NCBI RefSeq assembly: GCF_051307035.1
Contig: NZ_CP195536.1
Location: 2,520,001-2,552,000, forward strand
DNA: 32,000 bases
DNA from: Psychrobacter sp. DM4
GTDB taxonomy: Bacteria; Pseudomonadota; Gammaproteobacteria; Pseudomonadales; Moraxellaceae
Reading direction: 5' to 3'
The notes beneath the pieces were generated by a model that worked only from the letters and a program-made list of their open reading frames with translations, did not search any database and had not been told where the DNA came from. A program made the position numbers and the translations under genes. Of this stretch, positions 10,579 to 29,482 are shown piece by piece (positions within the stretch are counted from its first letter, which is position 1; the number at the start of each line of letters is the position of its first letter).

Positions 10579-10613
10579 TCAGCACTGTTAGCGTTGCGGC
10601 TGTAAAATCGAAT

Positions 10614-11657
10614 TTACTTCTTGGCAATGATGGTCGCGCGCTTCGGCGCAGGATAGCCTTCAACAGTTTTGGTGTGATCATTAGGATCTAAGAAATCAGC
10701 GAGCGATTGATACGTCATCCACTCGGTTGCTCGTTGTTCTTCAATTGTAGTCACATCCACATCGACACAGCGCACATCGCTAAATCCTGCCTTCTCTAAC
10801 CAGCCAATAAGCGCCGCCACCGATGGCAAAAAATACACGTTATTCATCTGCGCATATCTATCATGTGGTACAAGTACGGTATTAGTATCCCCATCAATCA
10901 CTAACGTCTCAAGTACCAATTCACCGCCTTTTACCAGCTGCCCTTTGAGCTGTTGCAAGTGCTCAAACGGTGACTGACGATGATACAGCACTCCCATGCT
11001 AAATACCGTATCAAATAGCTGACTGCCTTGGTCGCTACTGGCAGGCAATGCCTCTAGCGGTACAGGAATATAGTGCGTTCGATAAGCGTCAGCTGCGCCA
11101 ATAAAATGCCGAATCGCCATAAACTGATGATAAAACAGACATGACGGATCAACGATAATGACCGTATCCGCACCAGCGCCTGCCATACGCCAACCATGAT
11201 ACCCAGAGCCGCCACCGACATCGAGCACGCGCCGACCTTTTAGCGTGCCCAAATGCGGTACGACCCGTTGCCATTTCCAATCACTGTGCCATTCAGTATC
11301 AATCTGAATACCTGACTCATCATCGCCAGTTTGACCGCCAATTTGAAACGGCCCTTTGCGCCATGGCATGAGCTGTTTTAATAGCGCTACTATTTGTTTG
11401 CGCTGAGACTCACTCAGACTTGCCTCGATCGTCAACACATCATTGTCTAGGTCGACATTATCAACGGTTAGTTCTGGCAAACGCGCCACCGCCGCTTGGT
11501 AAGCTGGCGCGTGCGCATAGTTGGCTTTGTCTTTTATATCACCCAGCCACGTTGGTAATTGCTTGAGCCACTCATAAGCGCTTGGTTGCTGCTGCGCCAG
11601 CTCCAGTAGTGTTAGATATAGTTCGCGTTCGGCGTTAGCAATGGTTTGATTGATCAT
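10614..11657 (-). CDS. cmoB: tRNA U34 carboxymethyltransferase CmoB
   Basis: LMPWRKGPF signature, SAM-binding [27 protein letters not shown], and the right length. Confidence 0.93.
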
Positions 11658-11894
11658 AAAAGTTCAGTATTTATTTGTTGGTATGTTGGGCGATATTTTA
11701 AGGAGTGAAGGCCACAAAAGCAAAAAGATTAGCCTCTAGATTTGGGTTCTTTAAAGATGGGCAAATATGCGGGGCGTGGGACGGTTTTCTTTAACGATTT
11801 ATGCGTGCCTCGTCCCTCGGCAAGAGCTTTCGTCTTACACTCGGACGAAGCAGTGCTTTGTAGTTTCTTCGCTTCTAAGTTTCAAATTTACGGG

Positions 11895-13253
11895 TCATTC
11901 AAAAGCCATTATATTTGCTACTTCTATAATTTGGCCAATTGCTCTTTTAGTATATGGAATTTCATCCATGAAATAATAATGTTTCATGTATGAAGCCCAT
12001 TTTTTCTGCTGGTCTTCCGATACAACATAGTTTTGAGTGTTTTTATTACAATCTCTTCCAAGCACAAACATCACAAATTCGAAAACCTCTGGACGTGTGT
12101 TTCCTCCTTCCTCAAGAAAAGGGGTTTTCTCTACCCCTAAAAACTCACCTAGAGTTTTAGCGTCAATGTTACCTCTTTTAATTTGTCTCAATAATGCAGG
12201 CTGGTAGCAAACTAGCATAATGCCAATCAGTTTTAATAATGTGTGACCGATATAACGGCGCTCAACAAAAACCTCTGAATTAGAAAGACTTTGCACAATC
12301 TGTATATGTAAAACCAATGTCTCTATTTCTCTAAGCGAAAGATTTTGATGCTGAATCAAATGATAAATAGCGCTTTTAAAATAAGATGATGCCAACAAAC
12401 TTTCAGGTAGACAGCCCTTTTCTTCTATAAGAGAGACAAAGTGATAGCCTGCTGCTAAAGTAGGTGAACCTGACACTCTATCGGCATGAGAAGATAGTTC
12501 AAATCTATACTTTATAAACTTATCTAAGTAGCGTTGTGCATCAACTGCCTGACCATAACAATGATTTATAGAAGCTCTCAACTGCTGGGTATTAGTTATA
12601 AGTACAAAGCTAACACCTTCAACATCGAACGTGTGCTTGATTATCTCAAGCATATCGACTGCGAAGTTTGGTCTACAACGATCAAGTTCATCTATAAATA
12701 TAACGATAGGATTTTGAGATGCAATCGCTGTTAGAGTAGTTTGCAATGTTTGTAAACTCTTTTCTGCTTCCACATGATCTTTAAGTATTAGCTCTGCTGT
12801 TTTGTCGATTGAATCATCAGCTACTTTCTGAATCACCTCATCGAAATCGTTTATAATATCCGTAAAGTCTTGTCTTAAAAGATGAGAAATACCAGCCTTA
12901 GCTACTGTTTTAAGAGTATAACGTACAGCTGGCAATACTCTATTTATAAAAGCCTTTCTACGTGGACCTTCAGGCAATATTTTAATAATTTCTGCTAGTA
13001 CAGTCATCAAAGGCTCATCAACATGATCAGCTTTGAAAGCGTCAATATAAATTATATTGTGTGTACTATCTTCTTTCATTAGATTAATAAGTTTATGACA
13101 AAATTCAGTCTTACCTGTGCCCCAACTACCGTCAATGACCGTTGGTGAAATATCTATATCAGACTTTAAAAGCTTAATAGCTTTCTCAGCGATGCTTTTA
13201 CGCTTAAATTCGTCACGATCATCAAAAGTTTTTGTTGTAATATCCATATCCAT
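11895..13253 (-). CDS. KAP-family P-loop NTPase, apparently soluble and standing alone
   Basis: Walker A in VIDGSWGTGKTEF, Walker B-like PIVIFIDELDRCRP, and the KAP-typical N-terminal layout (FKRKSIAEKAIKLL...). AT-rich relative to its neighbours: 28-42% G+C in four hand-counted 60-nt samples. Confidence 0.85.
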   Translation of the reverse strand: MDMDITTKTFDDRDEFKRKSIAEKAIKLLKSDIDISPTVIDGSWGTGKTEFCHKLINLMKEDSTHNIIYIDAFKADHVDEPLMTVLAEIIKILPEGPRRKAFINRVLPAVRYTLKTVAKAGISHLLRQDFTDIINDFDEVIQKVADDSIDKTAELILKDHVEAEKSLQTLQTTLTAIASQNPIVIFIDELDRCRPNFAVDMLEIIKHTFDVEGVSFVLITNTQQLRASINHCYGQAVDAQRYLDKFIKYRFELSSHADRVSGSPTLAAGYHFVSLIEEKGCLPESLLASSYFKSAIYHLIQHQNLSLREIETLVLHIQIVQSLSNSEVFVERRYIGHTLLKLIGIMLVCYQPALLRQIKRGNIDAKTLGEFLGVEKTPFLEEGGNTRPEVFEFVMFVLGRDCNKNTQNYVVSEDQQKKWASYMKHYYFMDEIPYTKRAIGQIIEVANIMAFE

Positions 13254-13270
13254 TTTATAGTTCTCTTCTA

Positions 13271-13300
13271 ATTACAATCTAAATCAGTAAAAACATGCAA
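13271..13300 (-). promoter_or_regulatory. Candidate sigma70 promoter for the KAP NTPase gene
   Basis: The minus strand reads TTGCAT-N18-TGTAAT. The -10 element ends only 17 nt before the ATG, so the leader would be very short. Read-through from cmoA is an alternative source of transcription. Confidence 0.25.
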
Positions 13301-13304
13301 TGCC

Positions 13305-13370
13305 GTAGGGTGCGCCCAGCGCACCCATTTAAAAAGATGGTTGTTTATCGGTGCGCTGGACTCACCCTAC
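13305..13370. repeat. REPIN-like pair of inverted REP-type repeats (GTAGGGTG..CCAGCGCACC)
   Basis: 8 bp (13305-13312 with 13363-13370) plus 10 bp (13316-13325 with 13350-13359) pair across a 24-nt loop. The left copy is itself a perfect 8-bp palindrome, GGGTGCGC-cca-GCGCACCC (13308-13326). Confidence 0.5.
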
Positions 13371-13454
13371 AAGACTTCAGTTTTTTAGTAAGATAAAGCT
13401 TTAACTACGGCGAATATAATCACGAGAGCGATGTCACCGCTAGCCCTGACTGAA

Positions 13455-13568
13455 GCGGTTATCCTGTCATAACTGCTAGGTTGCAAAGGCTTGGCGGGTC
13501 AGGGTGTCGCGGTAGCAGCAACCTGTCCCGCCTATAGCCGTGCCCTAGCAGTTATGGCAGATAATAGC
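13455..13568. other. 114-nt rod-like imperfect palindrome (structured RNA or MITE/REPIN-type element), identity unknown
   Basis: 17 consecutive pairs (13464-13480 with 13544-13560, including one G-U). An inner GC-rich stem pairs 10 of 11 positions (13493-13503 with 13522-13532). There is a 3-bp bridge (13488-13490 with 13537-13539). Outer pairs run 13455-13463 with 13560-13568, and weaker pairing extends to 13439/13584. Confidence 0.5.
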
Positions 13569-13610
13569 GGACGGCAGGAGCAGCTCCCACTATTTATTCA
13601 AAACAAAACC

Positions 13611-14393
13611 CTATTTAAACGCCACAATAGAAACAAAATTTAAAAACTGAAACCATGTCAAATGCCGCTTGAAACCAACTTGTGCCAGACGTGCATGATG
13701 CTCATCCAAAGTATCGGTAATCAGGACGTTTTCTAGCGCATTACGCTTGCCGCTGATTTCCATCTCGGTATAGCCGTTGGCGCGTTTAAAATCATAATAA
13801 CGCTCAACCAACCACGCATCGTATTGTTCATCAAAAGCATGGGTCTTTTCGGTCAACACCAATATGCCGCCCTCGCTCAGCGCATTATAAATAGTCTCTA
13901 ATACCGCTACCCTATCGGCTGCGGGTAAAAACTGTAAGGTTAAGTTTAAAATTACCATGTCACAGGGTTCAAGCTCGACATCACGAATATCAGCGGTAAT
14001 CACTTCAATATCGTGCTCAGGATAATTATCCTTAAGTAAAGTGGTCGCCTCGTTTGTCATCGCAGGCGAGATATCTATCGCTTTAATCTGTAAGTCTTGC
14101 GGCTCAAACTCGCCCGCCAGCGTCATACTGGCCGCGCCAAGTGAACAGCCCAAATCATAAATTCGGCTGACACGGCCTTTGTCACTCTGTTGACGATACT
14201 TACAATGACGACGGGCAAATATGGGCAGCATCGCTAGCACTTGACCGTAACCTGGCACACTACGGCGGATCATATCAGGGAAACAAGCCACCACTTGCTC
14301 ATCGAAAGAAAAGCGCGCCGCTTTGTCTAGTGGTGTAGTAAACGGTTTATCAAATAGGGTGTCATGTTTGATGGCAGGCTTGGATTGGCTCAT
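13611..14393 (-). CDS. cmoA: Carboxy-S-adenosyl-L-methionine synthase CmoA
   Basis: [23 protein letters not shown]-binding YDLGCSLGA, and NLTLQFL. Length and sequence are typical of CmoA. Confidence 0.93.
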
Positions 14394-15264: not shown

Positions 15265-15945
15265 ATGAATCCAGAGTTTTGGCAAGCGCGTTGGGGTGAG
15301 GGTCGTAACGGCTTTCATAAGTCTGAGGTCAATCCGTTGTTGCTCAAATATTTTTCAGCTTTAAAGCTAAAAAAAGGTAGCCGAGTATTAGTGCCTTTAA
15401 GCGGTAAATCATTGGATATGGCATGGTTAGCCGCGCAGGGTTACGAGGTCGTTGGTATTGAGCTGGTCGAATCTGCGGTACAAGAGTTCTTCGCTGAACA
15501 TAGTATCTTGCCAACTATACATTAGCATGCGGATAATCCAGCTGTTAGGGATTATCAGGGTCAATTGGCAGGACAAATTATAACCTTATGGGTTGCTGAT
15601 ATCTTTGCGCTCGGTGCTGATGATATAGGTCATATTGATGCAATTTATGATCGAGCCGCGCTAATCGCTCTACCGCCTGATGTGCGTCCAAAATATAGCG
15701 AACATATCCGTCAGATAACTCCTAACGCGCCGCAACTACTGATCACTCTTGATTATGATCAAAACCAAAAAGACGGCCCGCCATTTTCTGTTAGCCTTGA
15801 GCAAGTAGAGCGGTATTATAGTAATCATTATCAAGTTACTGAGCTTGAAAGTAACCCCTCAATGTTAAATGCCAACGCAGCCCTTAGCGTCAGCGAGCAG
15901 GTTTGGTTGTTGAGCCATCGACGAGAAGCTAAATTAAACGCTTAA
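15265..15945 (+). pseudogene. tpm: Thiopurine S-methyltransferase (Tpm/TPMT family) interrupted by one in-frame TAG at 15523-15525
   Basis: ORFs 15265..15525 and 15565..15945 are in the same frame. Together they align along the whole length of Pseudomonas Tpm as I recall it (EFWQARW...GFH, VLVPLSGKSLDMAWLA, IYDRAALIALP, LITLDYDQ...GPPFSV). The only disruption is a single amber codon. Confidence 0.8.
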
Positions 15946-28537: not shown

Positions 28538-28556
28538 TCTTAGCTTTGTATAATGT

Positions 28557-28591
28557 CAAAAAACCGCTCTTATTTTAAGAGCGGTTTTTTT
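28557..28591 (+). terminator. Rho-independent terminator after ETF-QO
   Basis: AACCGCTCTTA / TAAGAGCGGTT 11-bp stem followed by a T-run of 7. Confidence 0.7.
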
Positions 28592-29482
28592 GTGTCTAGA
28601 AGTATAAACCGCTGATTGTAGGTACAACTCAGTAGTCTACCCAACGATTGCTAGAAATTAACTCGTTATTATTACTCCGAATAATACTCGTGCCATAGCG
28701 GACAAGATTGTTGAACCAGTCTGCGATATCTTCATCCGTGTTGTACCCTTCTCTCTATAAATTATATCTTTGTCTATATGCCAACACTTGTAATTGCCGC
28801 TTATCATAAAGTTAGGAATAAGTCTAGCGGCCTACGTTTGACTATAGTAGATAAAAGTCGACTGTAATCGTTGGTGAAATTTATGACTTTTATACAACTA
28901 TTTAGCAAATAAATAACAAACATTTATTTAAAATTATTCTTTTATTTATAGGCAAAATTTTTCTGTTACTTATCCTCATCTCCTACTATACTTAGCTTTA
29001 AGAACTCAAAATTTCACTCTAAAGTGGCAAATTTACAGTCTGAAAAGTTAGTTGCTGTAAAGTAATTTTAATTTACTTATTGTTAATTGACGCGTTTTTG
29101 TATATATTCCTAATAAGTTTATGACTGTCCAGTATAGTCATTCGCAAATGAGCAGACGAGCAAACGTTAGATACATTCAAACTAATATTTAGTTTAAATG
29201 CTCTATCATAAGATATTAGCTCGTACTAAAGTAGAGATTACTTTGCTTGAGTTATATTCGACTTTACTTAGTAATACTAAACCTGCTCAATCGGTCGACA
29301 ATATTGATTGGATATTTAATTGGTCATTATGCTTTAGCAGTTTTTACAAGGTTTTAATCCTTTAGTGTTTAAGACTTTGCTATAGACAACACTGATTGCC
29401 CTGTGCGATAGATGCTAAACCACAATGTCTGTTTGAGCTTATCCAATATCTTGATTTTATGTTAGGCAAAAGGAATTGTCCT

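Follow-up and report, generated by a model that had tools for sequence, protein, structure and literature searches.

How did a solitary NTPase gene come to lie between two tRNA-modification genes, and what might it do there? In Psychrobacter sp. DM4, within a 32,000-nucleotide (nt) stretch of contig NZ_CP195536.1 (positions 2,520,001 to 2,552,000; hereafter the window, whose own numbering we use throughout), the genes cmoA and cmoB are separated by an AT-rich insert carrying a single gene for a KAP-family P-loop NTPase. The insert carries a solitary gene for a soluble KAP NTPase of the type catalogued as PDC-S20, a candidate defence gene that has probably strayed from its home in restriction-modification (R-M) operons into a hotspot for accessory genes, and the leader upstream of it is a set of dispersed repeats.

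All three genes are encoded on the minus strand. The conserved left flank of the insert is cmoA, which encodes the carboxy-S-adenosylmethionine (SAM) synthase (13611-14393, identified by its open reading frame [ORF] and by Pfam matches of SAM-methyltransferase fold), and the conserved right flank is cmoB, encoding the tRNA U34 carboxymethyltransferase (10614-11657; PF08003, Methyltransf_9, E 5.9e-127). The KAP gene lies between them at 11895-13253 and encodes 452 amino acids (aa), with support from the ORF, Pfam, and PADLOC. The gap measures 1,953 nt (11658-13610), and the ORF map bears out the co-orientation and spacing of cmoA and cmoB described in an earlier note on this DNA. That note also took the insert to be AT-rich and acquired from outside, and composition agrees: G+C content is 0.352 in the KAP ORF versus 0.441 in the whole window (z = -3.4 against other 1.36-kb windows), and G+C content at third codon positions is 0.256 versus approximately 0.467 in cmoA, cmoB, and argS. 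The insert is foreign and AT-rich.

Comparison across the genus places this insert in a wider pattern. Scanning species-representative genomes for CmoB yielded 80 Psychrobacter loci, 79 of which have both cmoA and cmoB, and the gene upstream of cmoB in these 79 is 75-96% identical to DM4 cmoA. The gap between the two genes is at most 100 nt in 54 species (typically 53 nt), 101-300 nt in eight, and more than 300 nt in 17. Because 54 of 79 species have this short gap, we consider the insertion to be real, and the earlier claim that it splits an otherwise contiguous pair stands. Cargo in the filled gaps is co-oriented, AT-rich (29-40% G+C), and mutually unrelated, and includes a pretoxin-HINT fragment (locus L004), three unknown ORFs (L063), a WG-repeat protein with a CobU fragment (L078), and a KAP homologue in strain WY6 (L079). 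The commonest occupant is a protein of approximately 187 aa, present in 13 species, distant Psychrobacter included (L005 5334-5897, and L002, L007, L011, L013, L018, L020, L029, L038, L041, L070, L078, and L080). It is recognizable by the sequence marks MIPSIAEQNIHQVL, QSFEQWLYED, and LESSNPDLYLELISFDYS, and had no Pfam match and no credible PADLOC match; given the pretoxin-HINT fragment at the same site in L004, it is conceivable that it acts as an orphan immunity protein.

Judged by these comparisons, the cmoA-cmoB junction is a genus-wide, recurrent accessory-gene hotspot, of which the KAP gene is one rare occupant. The earlier note had remarked that no integrase or transposase accompanies the insert. 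This is correct, in that no recombinase or mobility gene occurs within approximately 6 kb in the annotated syntenic loci, but it is not anomalous, since a recurrent hotspot with varied cargo accounts for the missing integrase, and operon-splitting inserts at cmoA-cmoB become explicable without one. Comparing the insert as a whole with empty sites, we saw neither a target-site duplication nor terminal inverted repeats. At the nucleotide level, the 53-nt spacer of empty sites has diverged too far for its exact ends to be mapped.

The encoded protein is a KAP NTPase, as the earlier note had proposed from its Walker A and B motifs. A profile search with KAP_NTPase (PF07693) matched residues 18-323 over profile positions 1-292 of 293 (E 3.1e-58; 197.8 bits against a cut-off of 20). 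Walker A (G42-T49, GSWGTGKT; 13107-13130) and Walker B (V184-C193, VIFIDELDRC; 12675-12704) are both invariant across 32 homologues. The highest 19-residue Kyte-Doolittle mean is only 1.45 and falls outside the NTPase core (residues 337-355), so no transmembrane (TM) helix is predicted, in agreement with the earlier remark that the NTPase domain lacks a TM pair. On this prediction, the DM4 protein belongs to a soluble subgroup; TM helices in the NTPase domain are typical of many members of the family, not all. An AlphaFold2 model built with 32 homologues had a mean predicted local distance difference test score of 73, with a confident, all-helical C-terminal half that is predicted to form a compact domain of approximately 190 residues (approximately 263-452). 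Foldseek comparison with the PDB ranked RdrA of the RADAR system first (8hr8, E 5.4e-6, probability 1.0, TM-score 0.34), followed by the AAA+ rings HslU, RuvB, clamp loader, and ORC/Cdc6, and a family-profile search of PDB sequences gave just a marginal match to PEX1 (E 0.0099).

Within PADLOC-DB, the protein matches PDC-S20 from end to end (PDLC04956, E 9.3e-175, residues 3-450, profile 1-447 of 450). The PDC series comprises 145 'phage defence candidates' drawn by 'guilt-by-embedding' from BREX, DISARM, and type I R-M systems (Payne et al. 2024, bioRxiv 10.1101/2024.01.29.577857). PDC-S20 is not named in the main text of that preprint, and the term was not found in the searchable literature. 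The earlier note had considered the locus an undescribed module, a description that does not hold, because the full-length PDC-S20 match and the presence of homologues inside type I R-M operons mean that the KAP gene is not undescribed. By homology, the DM4 gene is a further member, at a new location, of a catalogued defence-candidate family.

Homologues of the KAP gene occur in three kinds of genomic context. Six lineages, with proteins 53-80% identical to that of DM4, are embedded in R-M operons with the order hsdM-hsdS-(zero to four variable genes)-KAP-hsdR-YgjP-like; four of these are from Psychrobacter (L081/82, L084-86, L096/97, and L102), one is from Shewanella (L093/94), and one is from Pseudoalteromonas (L095). 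The KAP stop codon and the hsdR start are 5-12 nt apart in five of the six lineages, the spacer of P. jeotgali being unusual at 516 nt. Seven lone copies occur between cmoA and cmoB, namely those of DM4, metagenome contig L100 (89% identical), strain NC44, three P. immobilis strains, and WY6. Finally, two more distant homologues (approximately 50% identical) are found in small islands, adjoining a NERD gene or a DUF6161 gene. The DM4 copy lies outside any defence system and thus lacks the embedding on which the PDC series was built. KAP homologues have 34-36% G+C across three genera, whatever the host. Pairwise ratios of nonsynonymous to synonymous substitution rates (dN/dS) among KAP copies range from 0.09 to 0.19, lone copies included (0.09 between DM4 and the 89%-identical L100, and 0.17-0.19 between DM4 and the other lone copies), which indicates that the lone KAP gene is maintained by purifying selection.

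Several other genes recur beside KAP homologues, including DUF6161 (found both within an R-M-embedded cluster and as half of a stand-alone pair), Mrr_cat (a match to PADLOC PDC-S02), DUF4357, and NERD (L084 1640-5862; L095 5086-5958; L103 3712-4968; L104 3936-4904). Judging from gene content, the hsdS-hsdR interval appears to behave as a small defence island itself.

A probable history and a possible mechanism for the KAP gene can be outlined as follows. The family usually resides in type I R-M operons, in the hsdS-hsdR interval, and the DM4 copy has landed without its R-M partners, probably through recombination following DNA uptake rather than self-mobilization. The protein may be an oligomerizing, AAA+/RdrA-like nucleotide switch that would sense a phage cue or disturbed restriction. 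Infection could then be halted by its own NTP hydrolysis or by a partner encoded elsewhere. A defence role is plausible.

Several points weigh against this interpretation. The proposed defence role is an argument from guilt by association, and the 452-aa protein has no recognizable effector domain, be it a nuclease, a protease, or another kind, its C-terminal domain being modelled as helical only. If the protein acts on or with restriction, the lone copy might be idle unless a matching R-M system exists elsewhere in DM4. The DM4 protein shares 80% identity with an R-M-embedded copy and 75-76% with other cmoA-cmoB copies (76% for NC44), so the lone copies do not clearly form one clade, and a single transfer would be too simple a history for them. 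The WY6 copy also looks disrupted, being apparently split into ORFs of 121 and 222 aa. However, cmoA and cmoB are fragmented in the same assembly, which makes sequencing errors likely.

The tight coupling to hsdR could also mean that the protein regulates or assists restriction and does not defend alone, and this is the main rival to the reading of the gene as an autonomous defence candidate. Under this explanation, which we regard as unlikely, the KAP NTPase would assist, guard, or restrain HsdR, for example by sensing anti-restriction proteins in the manner of PrrC or by taking part in restriction alleviation with the YgjP-like protease, and the lone copy would act in trans with an R-M system elsewhere. 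The KAP gene directly precedes hsdR, and then the YgjP-like gene, in all six R-M-embedded lineages; together with the short spacing to hsdR in five of them and the occupation of the same position by PrrC, this favours an accessory function. However, the lone cmoA-cmoB copies and those in the NERD and DUF6161 mini-islands are under purifying selection, and PADLOC classes the family as a single-gene candidate, both of which weigh against this explanation.

The sequence upstream of the KAP gene raised a further possibility, that the gene works together with an RNA. The earlier note described structured DNA at both ends of the insert, a description that held for the upstream end and failed for the downstream one: the 357-nt upstream spacer folds at -145.8 kcal/mol (z = -8.1 versus shuffles), whereas the 237-nt downstream spacer is unremarkable (z = -0.85) and was rejected as a structured element, carrying instead a conserved repeat (module C, below). 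The upstream spacer can be divided into parts. The first is hairpin A, a long, rod-like element resembling the Flavo-1 motif, at 13430-13595 on the plus strand, which starts 15 nt after the cmoA stop codon. It is followed by a tail (13363-13429, minus strand) that has a consensus of about TATTTATCGTGGTT after every copy and reads TATATTCGCCGTAGTT in DM4. The stretch 13363-13466 is 90% identical to L002, a locus that holds different cargo. Hairpin B (13288-13387) is a doublet of two inverted units (13305-13325, plus strand, and 13350-13370, minus strand), each consisting of GTAG and the palindrome GGTGCGC-CCA-GCGCACC, with zero and two mismatches to GTAGGGTGCGCCCAGCGCACC. GTAG with a short palindrome, in two inverted units that form a hairpin, is the architecture of repetitive extragenic palindromic (REP) sequences and their REPIN doublets, and hairpin B has each of these traits. 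A pattern search found no further copies of the REP-like unit in the window; similar units are present in the cmoA-cmoB gaps of L002, L004, L041, L058, L098, and L100, and exact or near copies were seen only in such gaps.

The only upstream part that travels with the KAP gene is the proximal leader of approximately 50 nt, which includes the ribosome-binding site (13254-13305, minus strand). In NC44 and WY6, whose KAP gene likewise lies between cmoA and cmoB, the leader is 160 nt long and matches that of DM4 only over its first approximately 54 nt, a stretch that takes in hairpin A's left basal arm, and its last approximately 52 nt; hairpin B is absent. The last approximately 17 nt before the KAP start, (A/G)AG(G/A)(A/G)AAC..TAAA-ATG, also precede the R-M-embedded copy in L084. 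From these comparisons, the leader is not a cofactor RNA; it is pieced together from dispersed intergenic repeats, a mosaic that marks the border of the hotspot. An intrinsic terminator was also considered and rejected, as a consensus scan found no terminator-like site on the gene strand of either spacer and T-runs follow only some hairpin A copies.

The earlier note had suggested a module of protein plus RNA, in which the leader of approximately 350 nt would encode a non-coding RNA or a regulatory 5' untranslated region acting with the KAP NTPase. The strong folding of the leader and the presence of hairpin A upstream of the KAP gene in five of the seven cmoA-cmoB copies (DM4, L098, L099, L100, and L101) are consistent with this idea. 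However, the gene is retained in NC44 and WY6 although hairpin A is reduced there to its left basal arm and hairpin B is missing, and the leader and hairpin A are absent from all six R-M-embedded lineages. Hairpin A also follows cmoA beside non-KAP cargo in L002 and L004 and occurs behind aminotransferase, FGGY-kinase, tkt, and fumC genes beside unrelated cargo. Furthermore, the Flavo-1 strand, which in DM4 is antisense to cmoA and the KAP gene, folds better than the opposite strand by 5-22 kcal/mol in nine of nine copies. The comparative data largely refute a protein-plus-RNA module, which we now consider very improbable.

It is equally improbable that the gene is a stranded piece of an R-M island, captured in a permissive intergenic spot and drifting without current function: the hotspot does gather odd cargo, such as the pretoxin-HINT and CobU fragments, and the WY6 copy is apparently in two ORFs, but that split is likely a sequencing error, the DM4 ORF is intact at 452 aa with invariant catalytic motifs, and its dN/dS against other lone copies is low, as given above. 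A functional tie to the cmo5U tRNA modification, raised since PrrC-like genes share the position in R-M operons, was set aside, as the protein has no nuclease domain and, given the many unrelated cargos at cmoA-cmoB, the neighbourhood of tRNA-modification genes looks coincidental.

Between the KAP gene and cmoB lies module C, a conserved block of non-coding DNA approximately 150-190 nt long (11668-11859, minus strand). It is 80-82% identical to sequence in the gaps of L063, L002, and L041; ten copies were aligned, and the block bears the sequence marks ..TTGCCGAGGGACGAGG..TTAAAGAA..GCATATTTGCCCA..AATCTNGAGGCT... A promoter-like site is present at 11908-11937. Filled cmoA-cmoB gaps share module C regardless of their cargo, and the block recurs in P. 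jeotgali, within the 516-nt spacer between KAP and hsdR (L096 7540-7700). Its presence at both kinds of locus hints at exchange between cmoA-cmoB and R-M KAP loci.

Hairpin A is, in our view, a more interesting lead than the KAP gene, being a Flavo-1-like element outside the listed phylum that borders variable defence cargo behind several core genes. The DM4 element matches Rfam RF01705 (Flavo-1) at 13438-13585 on the plus strand with 42.5 bits, against a gathering score of 42, and scores 151.5 bits with model R1. Nine of nine copies score 32.9-50.7 bits with RF01705, and five, DM4 included, reach 42. The copies share a basal sequence, GA.TG.AGCGGTTATCCT ... AGATA.TAGCG.A..GC..GA, and in the alignment of nine copies the basal arms are conserved and the apical stem is variable, with compensatory changes at 20 of 40 predicted pairs. 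The full sample consists of 13 complete copies and two cut by contig ends, at five sites, together with one copy without an identifiable upstream gene (window 13430-13595; L002 4008-4174; L004 4444-4609; L087-L092; L098-L101).

Scanning metagenomes for the right-arm pattern added six contigs, none of which encodes CmoA, CmoB, or a KAP protein. Hairpin A lies behind an identifiable core-gene stop codon and ahead of unrelated cargo in five of these, the upstream gene being cut off in the sixth (L088). The core genes encode an aminotransferase (L091 and L092; L089 has this element as its first copy, the gene before it being cut off), an FGGY kinase (L092, with a matching second copy in L089), transketolase (tkt, L087), and fumarase (fumC, L090). 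Across cmoA and these four other sites, hairpin A starts 13-127 nt after the stop codon, and its better-folding strand is always antisense to the core gene that it follows. Its cargo includes a Dcm methylase with a PD-Lambda-5_A-like protein (L091), two methylases with an AAA_5 (McrB-like) restriction protein and its partner (L092 and L089), a SLATT/2TM-like protein (L087, weak match), and an unknown small protein (L090). L091 and L092 have both flanks in common but differ in cargo, and a second, inverted copy of hairpin A stands on the far side of the R-M/McrB-like island in L092 and L089.

We also found short forms that lack precisely the hairpin core, the missing segment lying between short direct repeats of the type TCGC(T/C)(T/C)T(T/C) (L091 6660-6700 versus L092 798-964; L058 5829-5900 versus L004 4444-4650; L083 5841-5900). 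Only the outer left arm (GGGAGCTNATCNCGC...) is kept, and the repeats read CGCCTTC/CTCCTTC and CGCTTTT/CGTTTT. The short forms would fit either insertion with a duplicated core or deletion of a palindrome by slippage.

These observations give a concrete hypothesis and a covariance model that can be used genome-wide. Hairpin A may be the cis site of an undescribed mechanism of cargo exchange or insertion that places AT-rich accessory and defence genes behind core-gene stop codons with a recombinase acting in trans. We offer this as a speculative proposal with the odds well against it. It is suggested because the basal arms are conserved with covarying, variable tips, because position and orientation are fixed at five core genes, because an inverted pair flanks an R-M island, and because short forms have the core exactly absent between short direct repeats. 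The site would be a strand-specific folded DNA or RNA, with a logic like that of integron attC sites or IS200/IS605 ends, and the KAP gene would be one of its cargos. Hairpin A could serve as the end of a mobile element, as a recombination site, or as an insulator carrying an outward promoter. An integron cassette was itself rejected: read directly from the sequence, the hairpin A base has no R'' (RYYYAAC) or R' (GTTRRRY) cores, the element precedes its cargo whereas attC marks the 3' end of a cassette, and the syntenic loci show no annotated recombinase within 6 kb.

Relative to the known Flavo-1 motif, hairpin A shows both likeness and difference. Canonical short Flavo-1 copies resemble its basal sequence. 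However, Flavo-1 is a compact hairpin of approximately 76 nt, whereas the DM4 element is 148 nt long, 73 nt of which are inserted in the loop; the motif is listed under Bacteroidetes (Weinberg et al. 2010), whereas hairpin A is hosted by Psychrobacter, a member of the Gammaproteobacteria; and hairpin A has its characteristic location 13-127 nt after core-gene stops, at the edge of variable cargo. Searching plasmids for hairpin A gave no match (blastn, distant mode). Among viral contigs, an exact 25-nt pattern found none, and a looser pattern found just two canonical short Flavo-1 copies, both in IMG/VR (L107 9618-9705 and L106 332-408, scoring 48 and 52 bits). The viral copies share the basal sequence TG.AGCGGTTATCCTTTTGC (GATTGAAGCGG... 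in L107), and one lies 4 nt after, and antisense to, the stop of a 567-aa gene that we read, from its translation only, as a terminase large subunit.

Elsewhere in the window, a thiopurine-methyltransferase-like gene beside msrA is broken into ORFs of 86 and 126 aa (15265-15525 and 15565-15945), probably by a frameshift. The same gene is equally split in NC44 (78 and 133 aa, L083) and intact in P. immobilis (222-224 aa, L098 and L101). In NC44 and P. immobilis (L083, L098, and L101), a DUF1176 gene of approximately 375 aa separates cmoB from a DUF2788 gene; DM4 has no such gene there, and its cmoB and DUF2788 genes are 35 nt apart (10579-10613). The sole other stretch with G+C as low as that of the KAP gene (0.35, in the 1.36-kb window from 28451) is the region 28538-29395, approximately 860 nt with no ORF of at least 90 aa, which is bordered on one side by an electron transfer flavoprotein (ETF)-ubiquinone oxidoreductase-like gene and on the other by a small membrane-protein/permease pair.

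Comparison with known defence systems further defines the DM4 protein. The KAP P-loop domain is common to it and to Tmn, PifA, QatA, and EF_KAP. Tmn is a TM-bearing KAP NTPase, with two TM helices after Walker A (Gao et al. 2020), and EF_KAP represents KAP-domain proteins fused to unknown regions that protect Enterococcus from phages in a Walker-B-dependent manner (PMC13552941). Both carry TM helices, whereas none is predicted for the DM4 protein, and no Tmn model was among its PADLOC matches at E <= 1. EF_KAP has a 322-residue region of unknown function, and the DM4 protein has the compact, predicted helical C-terminal region described above. Similarity to PifA is weak and partial (residues 14-254 to positions 17-254 of a 720-position profile, E 5.1e-15), as is that to QatA, which is confined to the NTPase domain (PADLOC match of 5e-10) and unaccompanied by QatBCD neighbours in DM4. 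The DM4 protein is much shorter than both profiles.

RdrA, which PDB entry titles describe as the ring-forming ATPase of a defence system, is the best solved structural match. It has approximately 800-850 residues versus 452 in DM4, and at this low TM-score the two proteins are 13-16% identical. The neighbours of the DM4 gene are cmoA and cmoB, with no RdrB deaminase gene nearby, so the resemblance to RADAR is one of fold only. Position offers a different parallel, as the anticodon nucleases PrrC and RloC occupy the same hsdS-hsdR position as the KAP homologues, and PrrC is described as occurring almost only inside type I R-M systems (bioRxiv 10.1101/2024.01.29.577857). Both groups are NTPases, but those of PrrC and RloC are of the ABC class, whereas the DM4 protein is of the KAP class, has no recognizable nuclease domain, and is encoded outside an R-M operon. 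PDC-S20 is the closest counterpart: the match is full-length, and homologues are embedded in R-M operons as in the rationale of the PDC series, whereas the DM4 copy itself stands alone between tRNA-modification genes. At the DM4 locus, a candidate usually embedded in R-M operons thus occurs naturally on its own, and this copy could help to separate autonomous defence from a restriction-linked role.

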